Assembly (NCBI RefSeq): GCF_026250525.1
Contig: NZ_CP111043.1
Location: 1,289,421 to 1,353,420, forward strand
DNA from: Chondrinema litorale
GTDB taxonomy: Bacteria > Bacteroidota > Bacteroidia > Cytophagales > Flammeovirgaceae
Direction: 5' to 3'
Length of the DNA stretch: 64,000 nt
The notes below the pieces were generated by a model, which did not search any database, was not told where the DNA came from, and saw only the letters and a list, made by a program, of their open reading frames with translations. Position numbers and translations under genes: made by a program. This document shows positions 4,250 through 36,696 of the stretch, in pieces (position 1 is the stretch's first letter; the number at the start of each line of letters is the position of its first letter).

Positions 4250-5857
4250 TTGCCCTCCTCCCTATTCAAAACTAACTTAGCTGCTGCAAAATTAAAGACC
4301 TATACCAAAACCAGCAGCATGAATTACCAATCGATACTGGCACAAAATATTGAGCTAATCAAGCAAGCAGCTCCTGACCATAAATCGACCAAAGACAAAG
4401 TACATAGAGAATGGGCAAGCATTATCAGAAATGATATTTCTTTTATGGCTTTGACTTATCAATACTTGGTAGCCAATCTGGCAAACTTCGAAAAAAAATC
4501 TACCACTGAGCAAATAGACCTGTACAAGTACTTACTGGTTTTGGCGAGCTTCTCTCCACAATACAACCTGCTTTCTAAAATCGACCATATTCTCAGCCAA
4601 TACAATGAGCCGATTTGTAAGTCTATCGAGCGCTTATTAGATGTGGCTGATTTTCAGATTATTGAAAGCAACAAAATTATTCATACTGGAACACTTGGCG
4701 ATTTTATCTCATTAATCTTCGAGTTGTACTATACACACACTTCGAGTGAAAGTATTTGCAGGGAAAAAATAGCTCCATACATTCTACCTCTTTGTAAAAA
4801 CTTCAATACAAATAATACCTATCTGGCTCATTTACTTCCGTATCATCCAGAAGCTATTTACACGACAACTCAACTTTTACTGCTTTACATTGAGCAAAAA
4901 AATGACAGTATTTTGTTCCAAAGTATTTGCTACGATATGCTGGGAGAATATGCTAAAAGAGAAGATTTTATACATAAAAATGCTCCAAAAATCTTTACTG
5001 AGTTATTTAAGCTTAAACAAGATTGGTCGAGTGAAGACATCAGTTTTTTAATTGATAAAGGTATTTTAGCTGCTTTCGGAATCAACCTTGCCAGTAAAGA
5101 AGCGCAACTCGAAGCACTCACCGAAAGAATTGCAATTCTTAAAGCCAAAGAATTACATAAAGGAGTAAAACACTATAAAGAACAAAAGCAGAAAATTGAA
5201 GCAAACTACGAAGGCATCCAACAAAAAAAATGGAATGGTGCTGTTCGCTCCATTGCTGTAAAAAAGCCAATTACCAAAGCTTTAGAAGTAGCAATTAAAG
5301 CCTTTGCTCAACATCAACAAATAAGTGTTTTAAGTGCATTATTCAATGATAGCATCGAGTTTAAAAACAAGCCAAAACTCTATAGTTTCCATAAAAACCC
5401 AAAAGTTATTTTTAAAGATTTTGCATTTAAACTATGGGTGATAGAAGAGCTGATGTACAAGCAAGAATTACTCAAACCAAAGTTTGATGTGCGGGAGTTT
5501 GCCAAAGAATACGACAAAAGGCAAATAGACGTCGAGCACGATGGTTATAGCATTATTCCAGAGGTACAGAAGTATTTTAAGCAATTAGATATTCCTCTGG
5601 AGTTACTCAACCAAGTGAAAGAACTCGGCATAGATGATGGTATTTTTGGAGGTTCAGATGTATACAATCAGTTATGGCCTTACTACGATCCCGGTTGTGG
5701 TGATGAGCTTTTACCGATCTCCAACAAAGCAGTGGATGATCTTGCATTGTTACCCAATTTAAAAAAGATTATAGGCTTGGAACTATCCAACCCCGGAAAA
5801 AAACTGGTAAAAGTCCTTAAAGAAAAAGGTATTGAACTAGAAGAAGTTGATAAATAG
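4250..5857 (+). CDS. hypothetical protein, 535 aa (true start possibly the Met at 4319)
   Basis: Long ORF, 2 nt after the upstream gene. No recognisable motifs. Confidence 0.4.
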   Translation: MPSSLFKTNLAAAKLKTYTKTSSMNYQSILAQNIELIKQAAPDHKSTKDKVHREWASIIRNDISFMALTYQYLVANLANFEKKSTTEQIDLYKYLLVLASFSPQYNLLSKIDHILSQYNEPICKSIERLLDVADFQIIESNKIIHTGTLGDFISLIFELYYTHTSSESICREKIAPYILPLCKNFNTNNTYLAHLLPYHPEAIYTTTQLLLLYIEQKNDSILFQSICYDMLGEYAKREDFIHKNAPKIFTELFKLKQDWSSEDISFLIDKGILAAFGINLASKEAQLEALTERIAILKAKELHKGVKHYKEQKQKIEANYEGIQQKKWNGAVRSIAVKKPITKALEVAIKAFAQHQQISVLSALFNDSIEFKNKPKLYSFHKNPKVIFKDFAFKLWVIEELMYKQELLKPKFDVREFAKEYDKRQIDVEHDGYSIIPEVQKYFKQLDIPLELLNQVKELGIDDGIFGGSDVYNQLWPYYDPGCGDELLPISNKAVDDLALLPNLKKIIGLELSNPGKKLVKVLKEKGIELEEVDK

Positions 5858-23206: not shown

Positions 23207-23968
23207 TTAAACTGGTTCTAATATCCCTTTTATAAATTCACTGTAGGCATCACCCATTGGTAATTGATCATCCACTTTAATCTCTTTCCTAAAAGTGGTT
23301 TCCTCCTGCTGTTTTACTGGATTCCAACCTGGTTTTTCTACCGAATGCCAATAAAGCCCTATGCCTCTTTTTTGCCAAAGTGGAAGATTGTTAAAGTTAA
23401 TTCCATTTTGAAAAAGTAATTCATTTTTAAATGCAGTGGATTTGCCTTCTATGGTTTTGGTAGCTTCCTTCACAGATTTACCCTGCTCTCTCAACAACCA
23501 ATAGCAGTGTGCATTTAATGCATTTCTATGTGCATCTTCATTTCTCCATCTAAAATAATCGACAACTAATTTATCGCTAGGCAATTGAGAAAGTCGGCAA
23601 TCAAACACGCCCATATCATTTAGCAACAAAGAAAACTTAGCACTTGCCTCACCCGCCAAAATCGAATTTATTTTTCTGGTTTTACGGGCAAAAGCAGTTT
23701 CGTTAAGATCGAATAAGAGAGAAATCTCATCGCTTTGTGTGTATCCATAAATTACTTTAAAGCCACAATTCATTAAATGGCTAACAGTCTCCACCATTAT
23801 ATCTCTAAATCGCTCGTCGAATGGACGCTTAAAATTATGTTTCTCTTTAGTAAGGTGCGTAAAACCTCTTCCATCAATTCTTGCCACAATATACATATTC
23901 GGTGGCACACAAAAATCGTGGGCAGTTTCGTAAATGCGTAATTGCTTATCAAGCTCGTTAAACTTCAT
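23207..23968 (-). CDS. Thg1-like protein (tRNA-His guanylyltransferase family, 3'-5' nucleotidyltransferase)
   Basis: Aligns over its full length with remembered eukaryotic Thg1. Matches are VARIDGRGFTHL...KHNFKRPFD (Thg1 VVRLDGRNFHRF...KHNFAKPND), YGYTQSDEISLLF (YGQSDEYSFVF) and AFKNELLFQNGINFNNLPLWQKRGIGL ([28 protein letters not shown]). Confidence 0.8.
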   Translation of the reverse strand: MKFNELDKQLRIYETAHDFCVPPNMYIVARIDGRGFTHLTKEKHNFKRPFDERFRDIMVETVSHLMNCGFKVIYGYTQSDEISLLFDLNETAFARKTRKINSILAGEASAKFSLLLNDMGVFDCRLSQLPSDKLVVDYFRWRNEDAHRNALNAHCYWLLREQGKSVKEATKTIEGKSTAFKNELLFQNGINFNNLPLWQKRGIGLYWHSVEKPGWNPVKQQEETTFRKEIKVDDQLPMGDAYSEFIKGILEPV

Positions 23969-24404
23969 TTTGCCAGTTGCTAATTATAAATTTATTGTCT
24001 TTAATTTCTACAGAATACAGTTCATCAAAGCCTTCTTGGTAGGTGGGTAAAACTATTTTTTTATAGCAAGCTTTAACACCCACTTCCGGAATTCTTTGTT
24101 TTCCTGTACGCTGGTTATTTCTTTCTAGCGCATCATCTAAAGTACTCTTAAAATAATAACCTATTATTTTATACTTGCGAGCCCGAGCCTGATCGATAAA
24201 AAGCTTGCGATCTTCAATGGTTGGGCTAGTATTATCCACCACAAATTTTGAATGCGTCGCAAAACAGGTTTCTAAGAATAGATTTTGCTTATTGCGGGTA
24301 TTTAGCAAGTCGAGACTAATGCGAATATGAGTATTAAAGAAATACTCTTTGTAAAAGGTTGATTTGCCGCTTCCTTGAATTCCTGTGAAAATAATCGCTT
24401 CCAA
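23958..24404 (-). CDS. P-loop polynucleotide-kinase-like kinase (PNK/Clp1-type)
   Basis: Walker A GIQGSGKST. VVDNTSP motif resembles the PNKP kinase VIDNTNP. 148 aa. 11-nt overlap with the downstream Thg1-like gene. Confidence 0.6.
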   Translation of the reverse strand: MEAIIFTGIQGSGKSTFYKEYFFNTHIRISLDLLNTRNKQNLFLETCFATHSKFVVDNTSPTIEDRKLFIDQARARKYKIIGYYFKSTLDDALERNNQRTGKQRIPEVGVKACYKKIVLPTYQEGFDELYSVEIKDNKFIISNWQNEV

Positions 24405-24524: not shown

Positions 24525-25232
24525 ATGAAAATATCTGTATCTCTCATCGCTTTATTGCTAGTGAGTTTGTATTCGCAGGCTCAATTTTTTGTTCAACAAT
24601 TACCACAAGACCAGATCTTAAATAACGATAAGGCCTATGTAGTTACCAATCAAGGTGACACAGTGAAAGGGGTAATTATTAATGGCTCTATTCTTAGAGA
24701 CTCTGTAAATGGCGATCTTCTTGAGGCTTTTACAATTAAAACAGATCAAGGAAAAATTAAATACAAGATGTTAGAAATTCAAACACTGGGTGTTATACCG
24801 GGTGTAGGAGCCAAACATAAAGACATGCCTCTATTAACTACTTTAAAAAAAGCTTCTGATACTACTTTTTTAAAAGCGGTAGAAACAGAATGGGTAATTT
24901 TTGAGCGTATATTATTACCAGGAAAAAGAGAAGTATACGACTTGGCTCAATTAGTGAACCCAGGATTCGACTCTAAAATTAAGGTATACACACGCCGTGA
25001 AGCTAACGACTCAGGAAATTTAAGTTTCGCTTCTATTAGCTTAACTGGTGGTGAAGACCTATCACACCTTGTATCTATAAATAATGAAAGACCTATACTA
25101 GTTACAAAAAGAAAATACCAGAAAGATGGTTATAATATGGTTTTTAAAGACTGCGACATGCTTAGCCAAGGCAAGTTAATGTGGAAAGAGTTTGCTAAGC
25201 ATATTTATGTATATGATACAAAATGTGAGTAG
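24525..25232 (+). CDS. secreted hypothetical protein
   Basis: Signal peptide. 235 aa. Confidence 0.4.
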   Translation: MKISVSLIALLLVSLYSQAQFFVQQLPQDQILNNDKAYVVTNQGDTVKGVIINGSILRDSVNGDLLEAFTIKTDQGKIKYKMLEIQTLGVIPGVGAKHKDMPLLTTLKKASDTTFLKAVETEWVIFERILLPGKREVYDLAQLVNPGFDSKIKVYTRREANDSGNLSFASISLTGGEDLSHLVSINNERPILVTKRKYQKDGYNMVFKDCDMLSQGKLMWKEFAKHIYVYDTKCE

Positions 25233-25234
25233 GC

Positions 25235-25870
25235 TTAGTCTTTTTTATTCTTGAGATAAGTATTAGCTAATCCACACAGCGCAGTAACTATTTTGCCATC
25301 TTCCCATTTGTGGAGATTAGAGCCTTGCCTAAATCCACATTGGGTTGTTTTTATATCTTCCAACCCATCTATTTCCATAAATACAATACCTTGCTTGCCC
25401 ATTGATCCATAAGTCATACAGCCATACTTACTACCATCACACATTTCTATACTTTTGATTTTTCCACTTCGCAAGTAGTTTTCTATAAAATCTCTCACAC
25501 AAGCAGCATCAACAATATCCAATTTATATCGCTGTTCAAGATTGTTGATAATAAATAAAGGACTATACGAATTTACATTTGTCAAAGTAGAAGAATATAA
25601 CATCACATCATCCGGATTAAACTTTACAGTATCTCTATAAAGATCTTTTATAAGTGTCTCTATTTTTTCTTCTAATGGTAGTTGATTAAAAAGCGCTGCT
25701 GCTTCAGCTCGGGCATCAATGGGTTTTGCGCTAGTAGAATCTGTATCTGCGTATTGTGCATAAGCAGATTGTAAAAAGATTAGATACGAAATGCTTAAAG
25801 TTAGTAAGATGCTAAAAAATGCCTTTTTCATTATTTCACAGTTAATTGGTAGAAAACCACAATTTAGCAT
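25235..25870 (-). CDS. secreted hypothetical protein
   Basis: Signal peptide (ISYLIFLQSAYAQ). 211 aa. Confidence 0.4.
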   Translation of the reverse strand: MLNCGFLPINCEIMKKAFFSILLTLSISYLIFLQSAYAQYADTDSTSAKPIDARAEAAALFNQLPLEEKIETLIKDLYRDTVKFNPDDVMLYSSTLTNVNSYSPLFIINNLEQRYKLDIVDAACVRDFIENYLRSGKIKSIEMCDGSKYGCMTYGSMGKQGIVFMEIDGLEDIKTTQCGFRQGSNLHKWEDGKIVTALCGLANTYLKNKKD

Positions 25871-25934
25871 CTAAAACAAAAAAAGCAAGAACAAATAAAA
25901 TGTTCTTGCCTTTAAACTTTTATACGTATTCAAT

Positions 25935-28900
25935 TTATTTCTTTTCTATTGCTTCTTTTATGCCTTTGAGGTTTTCTGTAAAGTATTCGAGTTGTTCCAA
26001 CAAAGCAGCCATTTGATTATTGCTACCATAGCCTTTTTGTTTCTGGTTTTTCATGAATACTTTTTTGATCTCTTCCCAACGGTTATGGGCAACTTCATCT
26101 AGCCAGTTCATCATGCCTTTAAATATTAGCATGTTGGCTTCTGCTCCAGAGGTAAGCGTTTGAGACTCATTTTCGTAATGAGAAAGCACCAATGTTTGCA
26201 ATTCTTTTTCATTCATTACCGGCATTACTTTCTCAGCCAATTTGTTCATGTTACGGTAAGAACCTTGCAATTTAAAGGCTGGCTCAGTACGGTATTCATC
26301 CGCCTGTGCTGCCGACTCAATGTATTTCAAGTTTACTTTAAGAATTGCATCACGTATTTTCAACAATTTAGAAAGTACGCTCACATACTCGTTGAGTTCG
26401 TCAGAGTCCATATTGGCTTCAAAGTCGAGACCTTCTCTATTGCCCGTTTCCGCATAGCGAATAACCGTGTGAATATCTTTACGGCTTCTTACTGCTAGTT
26501 TGGTTAATACCGGATTAGAAGTAAGCGCATTCTCGATATAACTCAATCTGAATTGCGATTCTGTATCGCCAATAATATCACCTAGATTGTAAGTATCGGC
26601 TCTGTTTGCCAACATATCTGGAATTCTAAACTTCTCGCCACTTTCTGTATAAGGGTTACCTGCCATTACCACACACACCCTTTTTCCTCTTAGATCATAA
26701 GTTTGCGGGACGCCTTTGTACACACCTTCAATCTTTCTTTGACCATCGCAAAGTGAGATAAATTTTTGTAAAAACTCTGGGTTACAGTGCTGTATATCAT
26801 CTAGATACACCATTACATTGTCGCCCATCTCAAATGCAAGGTTGAGCTTTTTTAGTTCTTCTCTGGCACTGGCATTTCCAGCATCGTCGGGATCGAGAGA
26901 AGTTACTTGGTGCCCAATTGCAGGCCCGTTTATCTTCATAAAAATCAAACCGATTCTGTTGGCGATGTACTCCATGAGTGTAGTTTTACCATAACCCGGA
27001 GGCGAAATTAAGAGCAACATACCCATTAAATCTGTCCGTTTGTTATGTCCCACTACACCAATTTGTTTGGCAAGGTTATCACCGATTAAAGGCAAATACA
27101 CTTGGTCTACCAACTGGTTTCTCACAAAAGAGCTCAACACCCTTGGCTTAAACTCATCTAACCTAATCTGCTGGCGGAATTTATCCACCATCGATTTTTT
27201 TAGCTCTTGAAATTTTGTATAAGCAGGCACAACTTTATTCTCGAACTTGCTGAGCCTTTGCATAAAGTTGTGGTAGTTAAGTGTATAACTTCCCTTCTCT
27301 ATAGAATTATGCTCACCACTTAAACCTTCAATTGCCTGTTCTACTTCCACATTCAAAACATTCGCATTATCGAATGAATTGGTGAAGAGTAACACTGCAG
27401 CTTCATTAATACTTGTAGCTACATTACTAATACCATCAAAAGTTTGGCCTTGCAACCAAGCTTTCAGCCAATCACAAATGAGTGTAAAGGCATCTTCTGG
27501 AATATCTTTTAATGAGGCAACAGAATGCTTATAAGTAGCCTCAGCATCTTTATCCTTTAGGTCTTTAGTGAAACCTTCACAAATAAATGCAGCTTCTCTA
27601 CTGATAGTAAATATATCATTTTCAGCTAGTTCTAAAGTAAGATAACTTGCTGCTTGTTTAGCAATACTAGCAGTAAACAATCCTGAACTTTCTACAAATG
27701 CAGTGATTTCAGTTGCTAAATCATCAATCAATTGTTGCTGATCTTCGCTATTCGGGAAAAGCTTTCTAATAACCGCTTGCCCACGAATTCGATGCAGAAG
27801 TAAAGCTTTGCTGTTATCGCCTTCTTTTAAATCTTCTGCAAACATCTGCCACCATAATGCAGCGCAAGCACGTACATCGGGCATAAACCTCAACAAATCA
27901 ATTCTACTTTCCAGATCGATGAGCTTTTGCAGTAAAATGGCTGCGTCGGCATCATGTACACCTTTTTGGTAACCCTCTTGATAGCGAGGTGCCATATAGG
28001 TTTGAATCTTTGAAGCCAGTTCTTTTACTGGTAAACCTGCTTGCTCGCTTAGTGCTTTATCTCGCTTAATTTGTTTTAAGTATTGATAAGCCAAGTACTC
28101 AGCCCTATACACATCACTGTTCTCAGAAACAATATCTTGAACCATAATAGCTGGCTGGAAATGGTTTCCAGACAAATCTGCTTTTTCAAAGAAATTAGTT
28201 CCCGAAAGATGGTAATACAAATCGCCATCGCGTTGTACCAAACTCACATCCAGCGACTGCACATTTACAGAGAATTTGTGTTTACCCAAGGTGATCACAT
28301 TTTCTCCATCAGCAAATAAATCTTGCCTATCTTTTAACTGTCTTACCGCCTCTTCTTTGGTTGAATTCAGTTTGCTTTGCAGGTCATCTGCCTTCACGTT
28401 ATCATCCAAAGATTGCAACTGCGTAATCATTTCTTGCACTTTGTGCACCATGATATCAGCCGCGAAATAGGCATTAATCTCGCTTACTTCTTTAAAAGAC
28501 TTTACCTTATGCTCAATGCTTTTGAGTATTCTATCAGCAGCACTTTGCAGTGAGGTTGCCTTCTTATTTCTCTGCTCAGTAAGACTCAGTTTTTTGCTTT
28601 CAAAAGCTTGATAAACTTCGTCTCGCTTGTCTGCAAGTTGTGGAATAAACTCATCGAAATCGGCAAATTTGCCTTCCAGTTCTTCGAGCTGTACCATCAA
28701 CCTAGTCATGTATTCTTCGCAGCGCTGAGGAGTGTCGCTTACATCCAGATAGTTAACTACCGATTGACTAATTAAACGCAATTGCGCAGCAAATTCGGCT
28801 TTTGCCTCAGTGCCTAACAGGTTTTTACGTACCTGTTTTAACTTGGCTTTTACTTGGTTAAGCGAAGCATAAATATCTGAAATATTATCGATGATGGCTG

Positions 28901-30854
28901 TTGTTTGTGTGGCATCATCAATCTTAAGATTACTTACAATCTCGATCAACATCTCTAACTCCTGCCCAATCTGATCGTTTTCTTGTTGTACTTGATCAGC
29001 TTCCGCCACTTTGCTTACTGCATCAATCTTATCTTTTTGCCCAGCAACTTTTTGCTCGTAAGGCAACAAGGAGTTTTCTTCTAAGAGAAAAGCCACACAC
29101 TTTTGCGAAACCTCTTCGTTTCTCTCTGCTAGCTGTTTTTCTAGCTCTTCTATAGCCGGAATATCTGCATAGCGAAGCTCTTTGAGAGAAATCGTTTCAC
29201 CACGAATGCTACGAATATTGGCAAGGGTTTCAACAAAATCGTTGATCTCTTTGTATTGCCTTCTTCTTACTTTATCTACTAACTCTTTGGCTTCTTTAGA
29301 AACCTTGCCAACTGCTTCGAGTGTAGCTTTCTTAATCCTTCTTACCTTCTCAAACTCCTCAATTGCTACCACCGAGTTTTGGTGGATTTCCTGCAAAACA
29401 GTATCTATCTGGAAAGCCTCTTCGTGGCCAATCCAGTAATAACTGTCTCCAATCTCACTTGATTTCTTCGCTACATCTTGATAAAGCGTTGTATAAGCCT
29501 CCTCCTTCTGAATGAGCTTTAGCAACTCGTTACACTCTGCCATTGCCCGCACAATATCTTTGTTACCTACTTTGTATAGATAACTTTCATTTTGAGTAGG
29601 CACCTCATAATCTGGATGCACATAAGGAGTTTGCCAAAGTTGGAGCGCATGGTGCTTTTTAGGCTCATGATCTGCCTTAAAATACACCAACTCACCATTT
29701 CTAAAAAAAGAATAACCGCTACATATTACCGGACTTTCTACTGTTTGTTCTATCCTGTTATAAGAAAGCAATACATAATCGCCCTCAGCAGGATTGTAGA
29801 ACACATATTGAAAATCTTCTCCATTGGGAGAAATATTCTTTTTCTCGAAGCGCATTCCAGTTAGGCTCTCATCGTAAATTTTAAGCTCACCGGTTTGCAA
29901 ATAATATCCTTGCGAATAAATAATACCTTGCTCATCTGGTAAAAGCACACAAGCATCTTTAATACTATCGATTCTGTGTACCTCGCCCAGTTTATAATTG
30001 AATACGAAAAAGCGAAAATGCTCTTCCATATAAGGTTTAATCTTGAGCAGAATTAGGTTGCCTAAATCTGCAAAGTAAATCTCTGCATCATCCAGTGTTT
30101 GTTCTGGTTGGCTTACTTCTTCTGCATAAATCCCTTCTCCTGAATCTGTATTATCTTCAATTTTGATGGTAAGATCACCACCAATGGTTTCCACAAACAC
30201 TTTATCCATAATGGAAATGTGTGGGTGTTGCCCTTCTCTATGGTGATCGCGGCTTGCTCTCTTCCACTCAAACTCATGCTGTGCCGGATATTTTATTTCG
30301 TGATCGCTGCGATTATCAAGGTATGTGAGCTTTTCTCCTTCAACCAAAAACTTAAAAGCTTTTACACTGCTTGTGTCTTTGGATGTTTGAAATTTGAGGA
30401 AAAGGTGCGGCCCAATAACCACAAACTTAGAAAAAGTTGTATGCTTGTAATATTTGTAAAGTTGACGGAAATCCTCAGCAAAACGCTCATCTGAAAGCAA
30501 TGAAAGGTCTTTTGCATGAAAGCTGTCATCGTCTGATCTGAACTGATAAACACTGAAAACATCAGATATTTCCACCTCAGACTTTAAACCTATATGCACA
30601 TTGTAACCAAAAATAAAATGGTCGCCTACCGCTATCATGTCGCGGGGAACACAATTATTCTCTGTGCTAATTCGCTCGGTTTTTAACAAGGTAGTCGGAA
30701 TATTACCAAAGGTATCTTTCCTTACCTCGTTTAGCTGGTTTAATTTTTCTTGTAGTGTATTGCCACTTTGCTTCAGCCTCTGCTTTAATATCTCATAGGT
30801 ACCAGCATCTATTTGCGGTGATTCTGTAGCTTGTGGTGTTGTATTTTGTTCCAT
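25935..30854 (-). CDS. giant (1639 aa) protein with C-terminal MoxR/midasin-class AAA+ ATPase module. N-terminal beta-rich region and central coiled coil
   Basis: Walker A LISPPGYGKTT, Walker B VMVYLDDIQH, sensor-1 VVMAGNP (compare ATxNP of MoxR/dynein), Arg-finger region MLANRADTY. A long heptad-like central region. No TM segments. Confidence 0.6.
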   Translation of the reverse strand: MEQNTTPQATESPQIDAGTYEILKQRLKQSGNTLQEKLNQLNEVRKDTFGNIPTTLLKTERISTENNCVPRDMIAVGDHFIFGYNVHIGLKSEVEISDVFSVYQFRSDDDSFHAKDLSLLSDERFAEDFRQLYKYYKHTTFSKFVVIGPHLFLKFQTSKDTSSVKAFKFLVEGEKLTYLDNRSDHEIKYPAQHEFEWKRASRDHHREGQHPHISIMDKVFVETIGGDLTIKIEDNTDSGEGIYAEEVSQPEQTLDDAEIYFADLGNLILLKIKPYMEEHFRFFVFNYKLGEVHRIDSIKDACVLLPDEQGIIYSQGYYLQTGELKIYDESLTGMRFEKKNISPNGEDFQYVFYNPAEGDYVLLSYNRIEQTVESPVICSGYSFFRNGELVYFKADHEPKKHHALQLWQTPYVHPDYEVPTQNESYLYKVGNKDIVRAMAECNELLKLIQKEEAYTTLYQDVAKKSSEIGDSYYWIGHEEAFQIDTVLQEIHQNSVVAIEEFEKVRRIKKATLEAVGKVSKEAKELVDKVRRRQYKEINDFVETLANIRSIRGETISLKELRYADIPAIEELEKQLAERNEEVSQKCVAFLLEENSLLPYEQKVAGQKDKIDAVSKVAEADQVQQENDQIGQELEMLIEIVSNLKIDDATQTTAIIDNISDIYASLNQVKAKLKQVRKNLLGTEAKAEFAAQLRLISQSVVNYLDVSDTPQRCEEYMTRLMVQLEELEGKFADFDEFIPQLADKRDEVYQAFESKKLSLTEQRNKKATSLQSAADRILKSIEHKVKSFKEVSEINAYFAADIMVHKVQEMITQLQSLDDNVKADDLQSKLNSTKEEAVRQLKDRQDLFADGENVITLGKHKFSVNVQSLDVSLVQRDGDLYYHLSGTNFFEKADLSGNHFQPAIMVQDIVSENSDVYRAEYLAYQYLKQIKRDKALSEQAGLPVKELASKIQTYMAPRYQEGYQKGVHDADAAILLQKLIDLESRIDLLRFMPDVRACAALWWQMFAEDLKEGDNSKALLLHRIRGQAVIRKLFPNSEDQQQLIDDLATEITAFVESSGLFTASIAKQAASYLTLELAENDIFTISREAAFICEGFTKDLKDKDAEATYKHSVASLKDIPEDAFTLICDWLKAWLQGQTFDGISNVATSINEAAVLLFTNSFDNANVLNVEVEQAIEGLSGEHNSIEKGSYTLNYHNFMQRLSKFENKVVPAYTKFQELKKSMVDKFRQQIRLDEFKPRVLSSFVRNQLVDQVYLPLIGDNLAKQIGVVGHNKRTDLMGMLLLISPPGYGKTTLMEYIANRIGLIFMKINGPAIGHQVTSLDPDDAGNASAREELKKLNLAFEMGDNVMVYLDDIQHCNPEFLQKFISLCDGQRKIEGVYKGVPQTYDLRGKRVCVVMAGNPYTESGEKFRIPDMLANRADTYNLGDIIGDTESQFRLSYIENALTSNPVLTKLAVRSRKDIHTVIRYAETGNREGLDFEANMDSDELNEYVSVLSKLLKIRDAILKVNLKYIESAAQADEYRTEPAFKLQGSYRNMNKLAEKVMPVMNEKELQTLVLSHYENESQTLTSGAEANMLIFKGMMNWLDEVAHNRWEEIKKVFMKNQKQKGYGSNNQMAALLEQLEYFTENLKGIKEAIEKK

Positions 30855-30971
30855 TTTTTTCAGTTAACAGGTGGTTACAGTTAGCAGTATTTCATTTACT
30901 GTTACTAGAGAGCAATTATCAGTCATCGTATTCTGACAACTGATAACTGTTGACTGTTCTCTGAATATTGA

Positions 30972-33029
30972 TTACAAACCAAGTGCTTTCACTGGCATTT
31001 CGGCAATGCCTGATTTTCTGGCGTGGTCTATCAAACTACTGATAAAGCTCTGCTCTTTCGAGTCGTTGCTGTAGCTTGAAAGTTTGAACAACAAGGCTGA
31101 TACACTCAAGTTTTTGATATCTTCTGTGGTTAATCCGAATCTGGAAATCATGTCTCTTACTTTCTCAATCATGTTACCATTTTCAGAATCAAGCAAGTTG
31201 CTTTTGATCTCCTGTATAGTACTACTGCTTTCTACAAAGCGGTCTACTGATTTACCAGTGGTAATAGACTGAATAATTTTCTCGAAGAACATGCTGTCTC
31301 CACCTACGATATCAATCTTAGCAGATTTTAATCCATCACTCATTACTTGAGCTTGTGCCATTGCAATGTCTTTTTGCACATTTACACGCGCCATTTCAAT
31401 ATCCTTCTCAATCTGCAATTTCAAGCGGAATTCTTCCAAACCTCTACCAGCTTCGTCTAACAATTTGTTAGCCTCAGCTTCTGCTCTAATTCTCTGTGCT
31501 TCTACCAATGCTTTCTCATTAGCTACTTTAGCCTCAGCCATACCTTGTTTCTCAATGGCAATTGCCTTCGCTTCCATACCTTTTGCCTCTGCTTTGGCTG
31601 TTTCTTCGATAGTTTTAGCATCTGCAGCAGCTTGCAACTCTTGAGCTTGCGCTTTAAATTCAATTACTTTCGCTTCTGCAATACCTCTAGCAGCTTCGTC
31701 TTCTATTTTCGCTTTAGCCAACACTTTGGTAGCTTCTGCATCTTTTTCTGCGATCATAAATTCAGTATCTGCATCAATGCGTTTTTGTTTCGCTCTAATT
31801 TCAGCAGCCTGTCTTTGTGCTTCAGCAGCTTTTACTTCTTTCAATAATTGCTCTTCTGCATCTTGCTCAGCTTTGGTAATCGATACTTTTTTCAAACGAT
31901 CAGCCTCTGCATAAGCCTGAGTATCTTTAATCTTCTCTTGCTCTTCTACCACAGATTTTTCAAGAATGATACGCTCTTTAATTACATCTTGAATATCGCG
32001 TTTCTCTTGCTCAAGGGCTTTTTCTTTAGCAATATTTGCCAACGAAACAATTTTCTCTCTTTCTGTAGCTTCTAGCATTCTTTCTTTTTCTAGGCGCTCT
32101 GTCTCTACTGCATCTACTTTCTCTTTGTTTTTCTGAGCAATAATTACTTGTCTCTCTTTATTTTGAGTAGCAATCTCCAATTCTTCATCTACACGGATGC
32201 GTGCATTTTCTGCTTTCAATCTTTCTTCGTGCTCTACCATTGAGGCAGCAGCTTCTTCTCTTGAGCGAATTGTTGAAATTTCTCTGCGTTGTTTTTCTTC
32301 TGCTTCAGCTTGTTGTTTTTCAAGCTCAAGAACTGCTTCTTGTCTTTCAACATCTTGCTTTTTGATGGTTTTCTCTTCGTCGTTTCTAATCTTGTTAGCA
32401 AGTATCTTTTGAGCAGCAGTTTTCTCAGTAATTTTCTTGATACCTTCAGAATCTAAGATATTATCTGGATCGAGTGAAGCAAGTGGTGTTTGCTCTAAGT
32501 AGTCAATCGCACAGTCTTCTAGTATATAACCATTAAGGTCTGTACCAATCGCCTTTCTTACCATGTTGTTCAACTCATCTCTCGAATTGTATAAATCGAT
32601 AAAGTCGAATTGCTTACCTACGGTTTTTAAAGCTTCTGAGAATTTTGCTTCAAACAAAGCAACAAGCAAACTCGTATCCGATGCTCTATCGCAACCAATC
32701 GCTTGAGCAACATCCATCACACTATCGCGATTCACTCTCACAAAGAATGCAACCCTAATATCAGCACGAAGGTTATCCTTACAAATCAATCCATTTTTAC
32801 CTTCTCTGCTAATTTCGAAGCTCTGAACAGAAATATCCATAATATCCATTCTTTGCAAAACAGGTATTACCGTACCTCCATTAAAGAACACTTTTGCACC
32901 TCCAATGCCTGTTCTTACTATTACTTTACCTTGTTGTATTTTTTTAAAAAAGCTGGCAATTATAGCAACTGTACCAAAAACGATCACGGCAGTAGCTACC
33001 AGAAAAATTATCACTGTTTGTCCAATCAT
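30972..33029 (-). CDS. flotillin family SPFH-domain protein (YqiK/FloT-like)
   Basis: N-terminal TM helix, SPFH domain, then a very long E/A/K/Q-rich coiled coil and flotillin C-terminal region. 685 aa. Confidence 0.85.
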   Translation of the reverse strand: MIGQTVIIFLVATAVIVFGTVAIIASFFKKIQQGKVIVRTGIGGAKVFFNGGTVIPVLQRMDIMDISVQSFEISREGKNGLICKDNLRADIRVAFFVRVNRDSVMDVAQAIGCDRASDTSLLVALFEAKFSEALKTVGKQFDFIDLYNSRDELNNMVRKAIGTDLNGYILEDCAIDYLEQTPLASLDPDNILDSEGIKKITEKTAAQKILANKIRNDEEKTIKKQDVERQEAVLELEKQQAEAEEKQRREISTIRSREEAAASMVEHEERLKAENARIRVDEELEIATQNKERQVIIAQKNKEKVDAVETERLEKERMLEATEREKIVSLANIAKEKALEQEKRDIQDVIKERIILEKSVVEEQEKIKDTQAYAEADRLKKVSITKAEQDAEEQLLKEVKAAEAQRQAAEIRAKQKRIDADTEFMIAEKDAEATKVLAKAKIEDEAARGIAEAKVIEFKAQAQELQAAADAKTIEETAKAEAKGMEAKAIAIEKQGMAEAKVANEKALVEAQRIRAEAEANKLLDEAGRGLEEFRLKLQIEKDIEMARVNVQKDIAMAQAQVMSDGLKSAKIDIVGGDSMFFEKIIQSITTGKSVDRFVESSSTIQEIKSNLLDSENGNMIEKVRDMISRFGLTTEDIKNLSVSALLFKLSSYSNDSKEQSFISSLIDHARKSGIAEMPVKALGL

Positions 33030-33081
33030 ATCTTTTAGAAATTAAATTGTAATTCAGTTTTATATAAATGTGTTTTTAAAT

Positions 33082-33735
33082 TCAATTTGATGTGTGATAG
33101 GCTTCTACCACATAGCAGTTTTTATCTTCTTTGCGCATCAGTACCAATGCCTGATCACCTTTATTAAGCGGAGTACCGTCGTGTGTTACCACATAAACTG
33201 TTTGGGCTATGCCATCTAGTTTTACTTCTGCCAATCCCATATTTTCACCATCAGCCGTACTTCTCAAAGTACAAACTTTGCCAACTACCTTTACATCATC
33301 TGGTTTGTTGATGTGCTTAAACATTTGCACAAAAGGCATACAAGCAACTTTGGTTAACAACAAACTCACTATAATGAGTGGGATAAATAATATTGCAGCT
33401 ACGCCCCAAGAGCTGTTTGCTAGGTAATAATTACTTAAAACAGAACCTACCCAAAGAAACAGTGCAAAAAAGCTTATCAGAATCATGATAGGGATTTCAC
33501 CTATATTGAAAAAGTAAAGCAGATTGTTGACTGCACTTCCTCCTTCTGCTGATACATCTGCGTCTGTGTCTACGTCTGCATCCATATCTATATCGGCATC
33601 CAAGTCTACGTCAACATCAAAACTGCTTAGATCAAGTACACCTACAAATGTGCCCAACCAGTAAAATGAAACCAATATCATTAAAAATGTATAAGGCAAG
33701 TTTACAGGCTCCAAAGCATAACTTAGAAATTCCAT
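33082..33735 (-). CDS. NfeD/YqiJ-like membrane protein (flotillin operon partner)
   Basis: TM helices, an acidic DVDVDLDADIDMDADVDTDADV linker, more TM helices, and a C-terminal OB-fold-like beta segment. 217 aa. Directly upstream of the flotillin gene. Confidence 0.6.
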   Translation of the reverse strand: MEFLSYALEPVNLPYTFLMILVSFYWLGTFVGVLDLSSFDVDVDLDADIDMDADVDTDADVSAEGGSAVNNLLYFFNIGEIPIMILISFFALFLWVGSVLSNYYLANSSWGVAAILFIPLIIVSLLLTKVACMPFVQMFKHINKPDDVKVVGKVCTLRSTADGENMGLAEVKLDGIAQTVYVVTHDGTPLNKGDQALVLMRKEDKNCYVVEAYHTSN

Positions 33736-34799
33736 AGTAGTATAGTTTAAAGTCTTAGCAGCTTTGGCAAAGCGATGCCAACAGAGAAATAAAATTGTAT
33801 TTCTCCTGCTTTATGTAAGACGAATTGTGATTTAAGATTTTTAATAGTTTGGTGTGAATCTGATTCCTACGCTACTTTATCAATCTCTTATTTTTCAGAA
33901 AATTTATTAGTACAAAAAACTCCTCCATTATTTACATTTAGTTAAAATTTTCTAACGTAATAAACCAAATATTTTGGTATATTTTGATAGTATTTTCTTC
34001 CTCTTTTTTGATAATTAGACAAAGTAATTCCTGCTGAGCTTTTTAAACCCAGATGCTTAAATGTTCGAAAATTACAATGAATTATTGCTCGATAAGGAAA
34101 AAGCCTTTCCAGCCAATTCTCTGATTTGCTTATTTTTTCTTGTAACAGATTAGTAGCAAGCAAAAGATTTTTATTACAAAATTTTATTAAAAAGAATTAA
34201 AATAATTCTGTTAATTAATACTCAGGCAAGAGAGCTTATCAGAGGAGAAGTGGATATGTATTTGCCTGTAGTACTTTCATTTTTTTGTAACTTAATTGAT
34301 AATATATTTTACTAAAAATTGAATATCAAGGTTACATAAAAATATAAATATTTACAGATTTAACATTCTGTTAATTTTTATATATCTCCAGCGATTCCAG
34401 AAGAGGCATACTTTATATATTTAAATATAAATTAGCCATATAACTCATATACCTATACAAAAAGATATATAATACAAAATTATAAGCCAGCGTATATACT
34501 TTGATTAAAATTGAATTATATGGGTATTGAGTAGATAAAAAACATCTGATCTAAGAAAATACTCAATATAAATTCATGTTAAAATAGCCTCCAACTTTCA
34601 TTTACCAATACCTGGTTTATTCGTGTAAGAATTTAGTAACAAAAAAACAATACAAATTCACCTAAAAAGGTTATTCATGTATACTTTTACGCAAATATTT
34701 TAAGGGTATCGTAACATGAGTTTTTTCATTTAATAAGTAAAAAATTATCATAAACACCCCTAGCAATTTTTTAAGACCATATGATATAATTACCAGCTA

Positions 34800-35549
34800 A
34801 TGTTTAAAAATAATTACCAATTAAATAAAGTACTATTCAAATCTTTTCCTACAAATAGTTTACACCTTTTACTTTTCATAAGCTTCTTTACTCTAACTCA
34901 TTGTAGTTTTGCACAAGAAAATAGTGAGCAGAAATTCTGGAATCGGTTCTATATTTCACCAACTATATCTTACATCTTTAGCAGTGCAGAATCTGGAAAC
35001 GAATTGATAGGAACTAATGGACTCTTTAAAGGTATAGCTTCGGGACTCAATTTTAATTATCAAATTAATCAGACATTTGGGTTTAGACTTTCTACAAATT
35101 ATCTCAAAGGACAAGAACAAGTAGCCAATAAAGTCTCTTTTCCCATTTATGAGGTTAGAGCTTGGGGCAGAGGAGTTTTCATATCACCTTCAGTAGTATT
35201 TCTTTCTAATAAAAGCTTTTTTAATGTAACACCATTCTTAACATTTGGAGCTCTTACAGGCTTTCCAGAAGTAGTTTATACTTACCAAAATGAAAAAGCC
35301 ATTTTTACTGGAAATACATTTATAGGTATAAATAGTGCCTTAGGAGGAAAAATTAAATTGAACAAATCATTGTCTTTTAATATAGAAGTTCAAGCTCAAA
35401 AAGCTAATTATACACCTAGTAGAGTCGTCTACCAAAGTAATGATTCTGTTATTATTGATGAGTCTGAAGATGAGCTAAATACTTCATTTAAACTCGACAA
35501 TTTTAATCTCTCATTAAGTCTTAGTTATAAATTCAAAAACAGCAAATAA
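34800..35549 (+). CDS. outer-membrane beta-barrel protein, hypothetical
   Basis: Signal peptide. Alternating beta-strand pattern. C-terminal aromatic residue. Confidence 0.45.
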   Translation: MFKNNYQLNKVLFKSFPTNSLHLLLFISFFTLTHCSFAQENSEQKFWNRFYISPTISYIFSSAESGNELIGTNGLFKGIASGLNFNYQINQTFGFRLSTNYLKGQEQVANKVSFPIYEVRAWGRGVFISPSVVFLSNKSFFNVTPFLTFGALTGFPEVVYTYQNEKAIFTGNTFIGINSALGGKIKLNKSLSFNIEVQAQKANYTPSRVVYQSNDSVIIDESEDELNTSFKLDNFNLSLSLSYKFKNSK

Positions 35550-36160
35550 TGCGTCTCAAAAATATACTTATAGTAGCATTACTATTGGGCGTATTACAAG
35601 CAAAAGCCCAACAGCACCTTTTCGATTTAAGTCTTGCTCCGCGTTTACATCTGGAAGAAAAACCAGAGTATATAGACCATAAAGTAAGAGCTATTTCAAA
35701 TTTATCAATAGGATATTGTTACCTCCCAGATTCTTTAAACTTGGGTATTGGCCTAACTTATGAATATTTTTCTGAACCTTATAAAGCTAGTAACTATTTT
35801 GGTTATAAGATCAGATATCATGCAGTTAAAGTACCTATACTTTTAAAAACTCCTTTAAGTGAAAAGATTAATTTAATGCTTAAATCTGGGCCTTCTTTCT
35901 ACTTTCCATTTATTCATGACACAGATATAAGCACATTATATAACCCTACTCTAAAGGGAGGGCTTAAAATCGGTTATTATAATAGCCTATCTTTTATTAT
36001 GCATACAAAAGGAATGGTACAATATGGAATCTCTGTTTTTTCAAATTCCATTATTTCAGAATTTAATATGATTAATTCTGATGAAGATATTTTGGCAAAT
36101 CAGGATAGCTACTCTCATGTGGGACTTTCTTTTTCTTTAATGATAAACTTTACCAAATAA
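35549..36160 (+). CDS. outer-membrane beta-barrel protein, hypothetical
   Basis: Signal peptide. Start overlaps the stop of the previous gene. Confidence 0.45.
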   Translation: MRLKNILIVALLLGVLQAKAQQHLFDLSLAPRLHLEEKPEYIDHKVRAISNLSIGYCYLPDSLNLGIGLTYEYFSEPYKASNYFGYKIRYHAVKVPILLKTPLSEKINLMLKSGPSFYFPFIHDTDISTLYNPTLKGGLKIGYYNSLSFIMHTKGMVQYGISVFSNSIISEFNMINSDEDILANQDSYSHVGLSFSLMINFTK

Positions 36161-36162
36161 CC

Positions 36163-36696
36163 ATGCGCACTTATCAGTACATATACATTTTTATTTCATG
36201 TTTATTTTTGACTAGTTGTTACGAAGAAAATATAACCGAAGAGAATCCTGCACCATTTATTGAATTACTTGGCTTCTCACCCAACGAATCCATAACAAAT
36301 GCCTTTAACGAAGAACAACAAGCATTTAGCTTTTTAATTAAATTTTCTGATGAGCAAGGTGATATTGGAATAATCTATGAAAACATAAACGAAACAGAAA
36401 GAAATTTAATAATTGAAATGTATGACCAAAATGGTAAAATAGACGAATCAGATGGAGGTAATTATAGCATGATTTTCTTCGATGAAGCTACTACTCCAAA
36501 TAGTCTTAATAGTGAAGGAGGTTATCAGCTTTACAAATTCAGCCCTTTTAGTGGCGAAATTGCGGCTATCTTTCAATTTCCATATAATGGCTATAAAAAC
36601 TATGTTTCCCCATATTACTTCCAAATCTATCTCCTTGATAGAGAAAACAATAAAAGTAATGTAATAACAACCCCTTCATTTGAGATAACCGAATAG
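36163..36696 (+). CDS. lipoprotein, hypothetical
   Basis: Signal peptide with lipobox LTSC. Confidence 0.4.
   Translation: MRTYQYIYIFISCLFLTSCYEENITEENPAPFIELLGFSPNESITNAFNEEQQAFSFLIKFSDEQGDIGIIYENINETERNLIIEMYDQNGKIDESDGGNYSMIFFDEATTPNSLNSEGGYQLYKFSPFSGEIAAIFQFPYNGYKNYVSPYYFQIYLLDRENNKSNVITTPSFEITE

Follow-up and report, generated by a model that had tools for sequence, protein, structure and literature searches.

The 64,000-nucleotide (nt) stretch of the Chondrinema litorale genome analyzed here (NZ_CP111043.1, positions 1,289,421-1,353,420, assembly GCF_026250525.1; hereafter the window, whose numbering is used for all features) carries three adjacent genes on its minus strand, which encode a membrane protein, a flotillin and a giant ATPase. 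The first is a short NfeD membrane protein of the YqiJ type (33082-33735, 217 amino acids (aa)), the second a YqiK-type flotillin (30972-33029, 685 aa), and the third a soluble ATPase with beta-propeller, coiled-coil and AAA+ parts (25935-30854, 1,639 aa). The gap between the NfeD and flotillin genes is 52 nt and that between the flotillin and ATPase genes is 117 nt (30855-30971). These positions, taken from the table of open reading frames (ORFs), are exactly those at which a first-pass annotation of the window, made from its letters, had placed three co-directional minus-strand genes with short gaps. All parts of the three genes described below lie on the same strand.

The product of the first gene matched the Pfam family YqiJ_N (E 1.1e-5, with a score above the gathering threshold) and aligned with E. 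coli YqiJ by BLASTP with 22% identity over 201 aa (E 2e-5), the alignment running through aa 201; no match to the Pfam NfeD family was seen. It has three hydrophobic segments (hydropathy peaks near aa 16, 83 and 112) and a soluble C-terminal part. By homology, the gene is a YqiJ homolog. The flotillin gave no match in Pfam or NCBIfam at any threshold, and Band_7 (PF01145) was not matched even at E <= 10, after which the E. coli yqiJK locus was fetched for direct comparison. The flotillin was found to align with YqiK with 29% identity over 415 aa (BLASTP, E 2e-40), a relationship also recovered by hhalign (probability 99.9%). Only the first ~415 residues align, and they reach from the membrane anchor through the SPFH domain into the beginning of the helical region. 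The protein has a single hydrophobic peak at the N-terminus (aa 6-24, 19-residue Kyte-Doolittle mean of 2.97) followed by KK, which marks the membrane anchor; the SPFH domain, a long Ala/Glu-rich helical region and a C-terminal domain conserved within the family (aa ~570-685) complete the layout. When the family profile was compared with the PDB, only a weak and compositionally biased match to flotillin-2 was obtained (E 0.007). Band_7 was matched by none of 16 family members scanned, and precomputed matches existed for only four of 120 homologs. Because the homology with YqiK is clear (E 2e-40), the failure of Band_7 reflects a sensitivity gap of the model, and on these alignments the second gene encodes a genuine YqiK-type flotillin of a clade that Pfam Band_7 misses. 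Domain-based censuses of SPFH proteins will therefore miss this YqiK-like clade.

The identification of the first two genes as an NfeD-SPFH pair of the YqiJ/YqiK kind, proposed in the first pass, is thus borne out by Pfam, BLASTP and hhalign together. Compared with E. coli yqiJ-yqiK, the two genes have the same order and the same pattern of membrane anchors, but the window flotillin is 132 aa longer than YqiK and E. coli has no ATPase gene downstream. Two flotillin sequences from unexpected sources were also met: one 99% identical to that of the window, labelled as coming from a Thalassobius/Thalassovita (Alphaproteobacteria) metagenome-assembled genome (P0121), and one with 58% identity in the eukaryotic transcriptome set EukProt (P0126). 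Both are probably mis-binned or contaminant sequences.

Judged by its relatives, the giant ORF is a real gene and not a chance reading frame; its product matches, with 100% identity, an NCBI entry from Chondrinema litorale named 'DNA repair ATPase', and more than 4,600 homologs were found. Pfam matches were obtained to DUF3686 (PF12458, E 3e-187), DUF7902 (E 8e-29) and AAA (E 3e-7). The DUF3686 region (29436-30755, aa 34-473) was modelled by AlphaFold2 (AF2) as a single long helix and, after it, a beta-propeller-like array (predicted local distance difference test (pLDDT) 84, predicted template modelling score 0.83). Next comes a helical region with a near absence of Pro and Gly (28275-29567, approximately aa 430-860), which encloses DUF7902 (28824-29072, aa 595-677) and which its composition, rather than a coiled-coil predictor, suggests to be a coiled coil. 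The middle domain (27135-28274, approximately aa 861-1240) is the least conserved part of the protein, with a cross-phylum identity of 27-57% and no match to Pfam or to PDB sequences.

The AAA+ core (26520-27062, aa 1265-1445) contains Walker A GYGKTT (26979-26996, aa 1287-1292), Walker B YLDDI (26793-26807, aa 1350-1354), sensor 1 VVMAGNP (26652-26672, aa 1395-1401) and the Arg finger R1418 in MLANRAD (26595-26615, aa 1414-1420). These four motifs are all invariant in an alignment of 10 cross-phylum homologs. A helical lid and C-terminal extension, helical in the AF2 model, ends the protein (25938-26519, aa 1446-1639) and carries GSYRNM (26247-26264), a candidate sensor 2 by its likeness to the G-x-S-x-R motifs of MoxR-type ATPases; Q1530, G1531, S1532, Y1533 and R1534 are invariant in the same alignment. 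Across phyla the identity of the whole protein is about 50%, and that of the AAA+ core 80-90%; few large proteins of unknown function are as highly conserved in Bacteroidota, Planctomycetota, Verrucomicrobiota, Clostridia and other phyla.

Several statements of the first-pass annotation on this protein are upheld. No membrane segment is present (the highest 19-residue Kyte-Doolittle mean is 1.05), in agreement with a soluble protein, the N-terminal ~450 aa are beta-rich in the AF2 model, and the quoted AAA+ motifs are all there, making the catalytic set complete. The coiled-coil middle of ~600 aa has to be shortened: a helical, Pro/Gly-poor region exists, but by composition it is only ~430 aa long. 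The overall architecture is stable, as DUF3686 was met only at the N-terminal end, in proteins some 1,600-2,000 aa long, and shorter matches to it look like fragments. The C-terminal ends are more variable, with tails of 130-280 aa in homologs from Planctomycetota, Desulfobacterota, Acidobacteriota and Sumerlaeia (P0099, P0083, P0085, P0113, P0063). The tail of a Desulfobacterota homolog gave a TPR-like match, and P0063 has ankyrin repeats at its N-terminus.

Comparison of the ATPase with PDB sequences, both as a single sequence and as a profile, gave matches to p97 and RuvB that cover only ~40-50 residues around Walker A, so that the AAA+ clade could not be assigned from sequence. For the AF2 model of the AAA+ module, the best structural matches were NorQ and CbbQ, both MoxR ATPases, with a sequence identity of only 12-15%; MoxR proteins are the closest relatives in structure and in sequence. 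The model also has a pre-sensor-1 beta-hairpin (26682-26735), formed by its strands 175-180 and 183-188 (protein aa 1374-1387) before the sensor-1 strand in a block with pLDDT of about 75-81. The hairpin, the NP motif of sensor 1 and an Arg finger in an xxLxxRxD context are all shared with the CbbQ/NorQ group. MoxR ATPases normally act with a VWA partner. The window ATPase differs from the CbbQ/NorQ group in having no VWA/MIDAS partner and in its Walker B DD, and its AAA+ module makes up only the last quarter, at the C-terminus, of the 1,639 aa. No helix-2 insert is evident in the model. The module is thus placed nearest to the NorQ/CbbQ-type MoxR ATPases although no VWA partner accompanies it, which is a new point. 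Of the earlier assignment to the MoxR/midasin/dynein class, the placement on the MoxR/dynein side is supported by the hairpin and the structural matches, while full membership in MoxR is not, as no VWA partner was found; that such a partner is missing had been noticed in the first pass, and this holds for the operon and for its conserved neighbours.

The names under which the protein is filed suggest another role. NCBI calls it a 'DNA repair ATPase' and PF12458 is described as 'ATPase involved in DNA repair', and weak RuvB_N matches over the P-loop could be read in the same direction. Beyond the inherited names and these matches, nothing speaks for such a role. The protein is an AAA+ ATPase and not an ABC ATPase of the SMC/RecN/SbcC type (no SMC or ABC matches in Pfam), as the first pass had already argued; no nuclease or DNA-binding domain was detected by Pfam; the RuvB and p97 matches are confined to the Walker A region; the conserved partners are membrane proteins; and our literature search found no paper that mentions DUF3686. 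A function in DNA repair is thus very improbable, and we reject it on the grounds of the AAA+ module, the membrane-protein partners and the lack of any detected DNA-related domain. The label is probably a misnomer, and it was probably derived from the long coiled coil.

To describe the gene context in relatives, one genome per species was scanned, which gave 585 relatives, and the best 80 loci were kept. They come from at least seven phyla (Bacteroidota, Planctomycetota, Verrucomicrobiota, Desulfobacterota, Clostridia, Kiritimatiellota and Omnitrophota). Synteny was counted in the 61 loci whose upstream sequence measured 3.2 kb or more. A flotillin homolog lies upstream of the ATPase gene on the same strand in 58 of them, and an NfeD homolog, which is more divergent, lies upstream of the flotillin in 51 by tblastn. 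The order NfeD, flotillin, ATPase was also seen in Kaistella, Carboxylicivirga, a close relative and an Acidobacteriota genome, which were looked up from flotillin or ATPase homologs. Pairwise identity in one of the three proteins correlates with that in the others (Pearson 0.74-0.82). The remaining neighbours vary between lineages, and besides NfeD, flotillin, PspA, CesT/Tir, a helix-turn-helix (HTH) regulator and an occasional phospholipase D (PLD), no conserved client gene, VWA adaptor or further neighbour family was found in the 80 loci. The first pass had asked whether homologs of the ATPase are routinely found without flotillin; the count of 58 out of 61 indicates that they are not. The synteny thus marks the three genes as a real module that is conserved across many phyla.

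Some features of these loci would fit an independent ATPase gene that merely happens to stand beside a yqiJK pair. Flotillin is not upstream in three of the 61 loci, E. coli yqiJK has no such ATPase, and in about 25 of the 58 loci flotillin and ATPase are separated by small ORFs that are not conserved. This idea is hard to reconcile with an order and strand that agree in 58 of the 61 loci, spread over at least seven phyla, when all other neighbours differ; the 61-locus census contradicts chance adjacency, which we hold to be scarcely credible and reject. The intervening ORFs number one to four per locus (e.g., in L001, L003, L008, L024, L040 and L054), are on the same strand, produce gaps of up to 2.4 kb and are not conserved between loci; the window has none.

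The layout of the locus suggests joint transcription. A terminator-like hairpin (25881-25913, minus strand), with a 13-bp stem and a T-run, starts 22 nt past the stop codon of the ATPase gene, and no terminator-like site was found in either internal gap. Promoter scans for sigma-70-like sites and for the Bacteroidota -7 motif returned no site inside either internal gap; within the 117-nt gap between flotillin and ATPase there was neither a sigma-70-like site nor a TAnnTTTG motif on the minus strand. With a strong hairpin after the ATPase gene and clean internal gaps, the three genes likely form one operon. The signals in the 117-nt gap that the first pass had named as counterevidence, a promoter and a terminator belonging to the ATPase gene itself, were thus looked for and not seen. 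Upstream of the NfeD gene lies an AT-rich region of 1,064 nt (33736-34799, minus strand, GC content ~0.28), the presumed promoter and leader, a length unusual for a promoter region. No ORF of at least 80 aa and no remnants of PspA or CesT genes were found in it, and an Rfam search of the whole window, this region included, gave no match. Several sigma-70-like sites and one Bacteroidota -7-like TAATTTTG (34475-34482, minus strand), a putative promoter element, occur in the region. However, the sigma-70-like sites found by the scan are fewer than in shuffled sequences and TAnnTTTG is not enriched (73 observed versus 101 expected), so neither scan can place the promoter.

In about 16-21 Bacteroidota loci, genes for a CesT_Tir_1 protein (131 aa) and a PspA_IM30 protein stand directly upstream of the three genes, and this form is accompanied by a divergent regulator with HTH and peptidase S24-like parts. 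Some loci also carry a gene for an HKD phospholipase D or genes of the yjf type (DUF4178, DUF350). The HKD phospholipase D (PLDc_2) recurs near the operon in Bacteroidota and Verrucomicrobiota (loci L003, L016, L054, L072, L076 (cluster c11) and L083, in the last at 4430-5119). In Kaistella carnis (CP034159.1, L082, 10172-16013) a DDE transposase has split the ATPase gene into pieces of 1,240 and 393 aa, and the operon is otherwise complete, with the HTH gene and CesT, PspA, NfeD, flotillin and ATPase genes. The tail of the Sumerlaeia homolog P0099 (1,916 aa) gave a sub-threshold match to CesT_Tir_1 (E 5e-4, 20 bits where the cut-off is 27). A fusion of this kind, if true, would join the ATPase directly to the PspA pair; as the match is below the Pfam cut-off and hhalign did not confirm it, the fusion is set aside as a weak lead.

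An operon of this composition has been described before. In a comparative genomics study, Ravi et al. (2024, mSystems, PMC11237479) reported the order CesT/Tir, PspA, YqiJ/YuaF, a protein with band-7, coiled-coil and flotillin parts, and a protein with beta-propeller, coiled-coil and AAA+ ATPase parts, and assigned the operon to membrane dynamics linked to the phage shock protein (PSP) system. Abbreviated operons without PspA were described as widely distributed, versions with PLD were reported for some Proteobacteria, the neighbourhood of Dokdonia donghaensis ANH61663.1 is given in a supplementary table, and the ATPase was called a 'novel AAA+ ATPase' without assignment to a clade (PMC11237479). 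The window agrees with this description in its three core genes, in how they are ordered and in the domains of its ATPase, and the Dokdonia example has the arrangement of the 16-21 Bacteroidota loci found here. Unlike the full form, the window has no CesT/Tir-PspA pair, no HTH-S24 regulator and no PLD within its 64 kb. From its gene content, it is an ordinary member of the abbreviated, PspA-less form. The first pass knew of no described function for a flotillin operon with a giant MoxR-like ATPase, and the novelty that this implied does not stand: the gene set, the architecture and the short form were all published in 2024, so the operon architecture and its linkage are already known and do not represent a new kind of system. 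What is new here is the placement of the ATPase closest to NorQ and CbbQ, the quantified synteny, the Band_7 gap for the flotillin clade and the finding that the label 'DNA repair ATPase' is unsupported.

The ATPase is nearly always tied to the flotillin/NfeD pair and often to PspA. We consider it moderately probable that the three genes, as one operon, encode a membrane-scaffold machine in which the ATPase is an ATP-driven remodeller docked on the flotillin/NfeD scaffold and active in the handling of envelope stress. By analogy with solved SPFH complexes, flotillin and NfeD would build an oligomeric ring or cage at the inner membrane, on its cytoplasmic side, and the ATPase would hexamerize through its AAA+ module. 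Its propeller and coiled-coil arms may reach the scaffold, or PspA polymers gathered there, as a putative contact, and ATP would be spent on assembling, dismantling or reloading the scaffold when the envelope is under stress. Such remodelling would resemble that by Vps4 on ESCRT-III or by FtsH held in HflK/C; the analogy is purely functional, each case combining an AAA+ motor with a membrane scaffold of PspA/ESCRT-III or SPFH type. According to a 2025 review, a Vps4-like ATPase for PspA appears to be absent in bacteria and the roles of band-7 partners are undetermined (PMC7619361), which makes the module a concrete candidate for the energy-consuming step of membrane-scaffold dynamics. More tentatively, the giant protein could be the missing remodeller itself, that is, the Vps4 analogue for PspA (ESCRT-III), for flotillin cages or for both, built as a MoxR-type ring whose own propeller and coiled-coil arms replace the VWA adaptor. 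This specific version is possible and clearly less probable than the general one; if true, MoxR ATPases would have a new way of working, and the recycling of bacterial ESCRT-III/SPFH assemblies would be explained.

Several observations weigh against a docked remodeller of this kind. By tblastn, no homolog of PspA or CesT was found in the 64-kb window, so the link with PspA rests on relatives. VWA domains were found neither in the products of the operon nor in the flanking ORFs, nor among the conserved neighbours in the 80 loci. The DD of Walker B in place of DE makes the rate of hydrolysis uncertain. The AAA+ model is of only moderate confidence (pLDDT 75), and at the site of the helix-2 insert this single model has a loop of ~15 residues between strand 2 and helix 2 and no hairpin. 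Three of the 61 loci (L005, L015 and L036) have no flotillin upstream. The co-transcription of the three genes is likely as judged from sequence only, and in the literature searched (DUF3686, the flotillin-linked ATPase, and YqiK/YqiJ after 2023) no experiments on any member of the ATPase family were found.

The structural matches allow a different reading, in which the ATPase, like NorQ, CbbQ and RavA, is a maturation chaperone in the MoxR style that matures or repairs another membrane enzyme complex, the microdomain serving only to concentrate the client. SPFH cages hold clients, as HflK/C does with FtsH. This role of SPFH cages as client holders is discussed in PMC13086221 and would suit a chaperone, as would the fact that NorQ and CbbQ remodel specific enzyme clients. 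However, neither a conserved client gene nor a VWA adaptor appears in the 80 loci, and the built-in propeller and coiled coil suggest another mode of substrate recognition. We regard the chaperone as rather unlikely.

The first pass had also raised the possibility of a defence module. As an anti-phage or conflict system, the operon would sense infection at the membrane and the large ATPase would in response trigger damage to the membrane or an arrest of growth. The size of the NTPase and its multi-domain build with repeats and coiled coil, together with the HTH-S24 regulator and HKD phospholipase D at some loci, would be compatible with this, and conflict systems that combine MoxR and vWA proteins with Band-7-like domains exist (PMC7159879). 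The resemblance to the ternary vWA-MoxR (VMAP) systems (Kaur et al., 2020, PMC7159879) consists of a MoxR-type ATPase and of the Band-7-like domains in some of their vWA proteins; unlike them, the window has no vWA protein, no VMAP and no effector domain, and the partners are the conserved YqiJ/YqiK pair. The only PADLOC match was weak and restricted to the P-loop region of the ATPase (mad8, E 0.0013, 16 bits; PADLOC-DB 2.0), and none was obtained for flotillin, NfeD or the flanking ORFs tested. In addition, the architecture is stable, for a conflict gene the conservation is very high (~50% between phyla, 80-90% for the AAA+ core), nearby genes in the window serve housekeeping and nutrient uptake, and the literature search found no paper that ties flotillin/NfeD operons to defence. 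On the PADLOC result, the neighbours and the conservation, a defence system is quite improbable and was rejected.

Five ORFs that flank the operon in the window (235, 211, 249, 203 and 177 aa, within 24525-25870 and 34800-36696) have no significant Pfam match, one of them giving a weak sub-threshold match; three of the five were tested in PADLOC with no match, and none is kept beside the operon in other genomes. Further along, at 23207-24404 on the minus strand, a Thg1-like protein of the tRNA-His guanylyltransferase family (PF04446 and PF14413) adjoins a small AAA_33 kinase-like ORF, and the two may form an RNA repair or editing pair.

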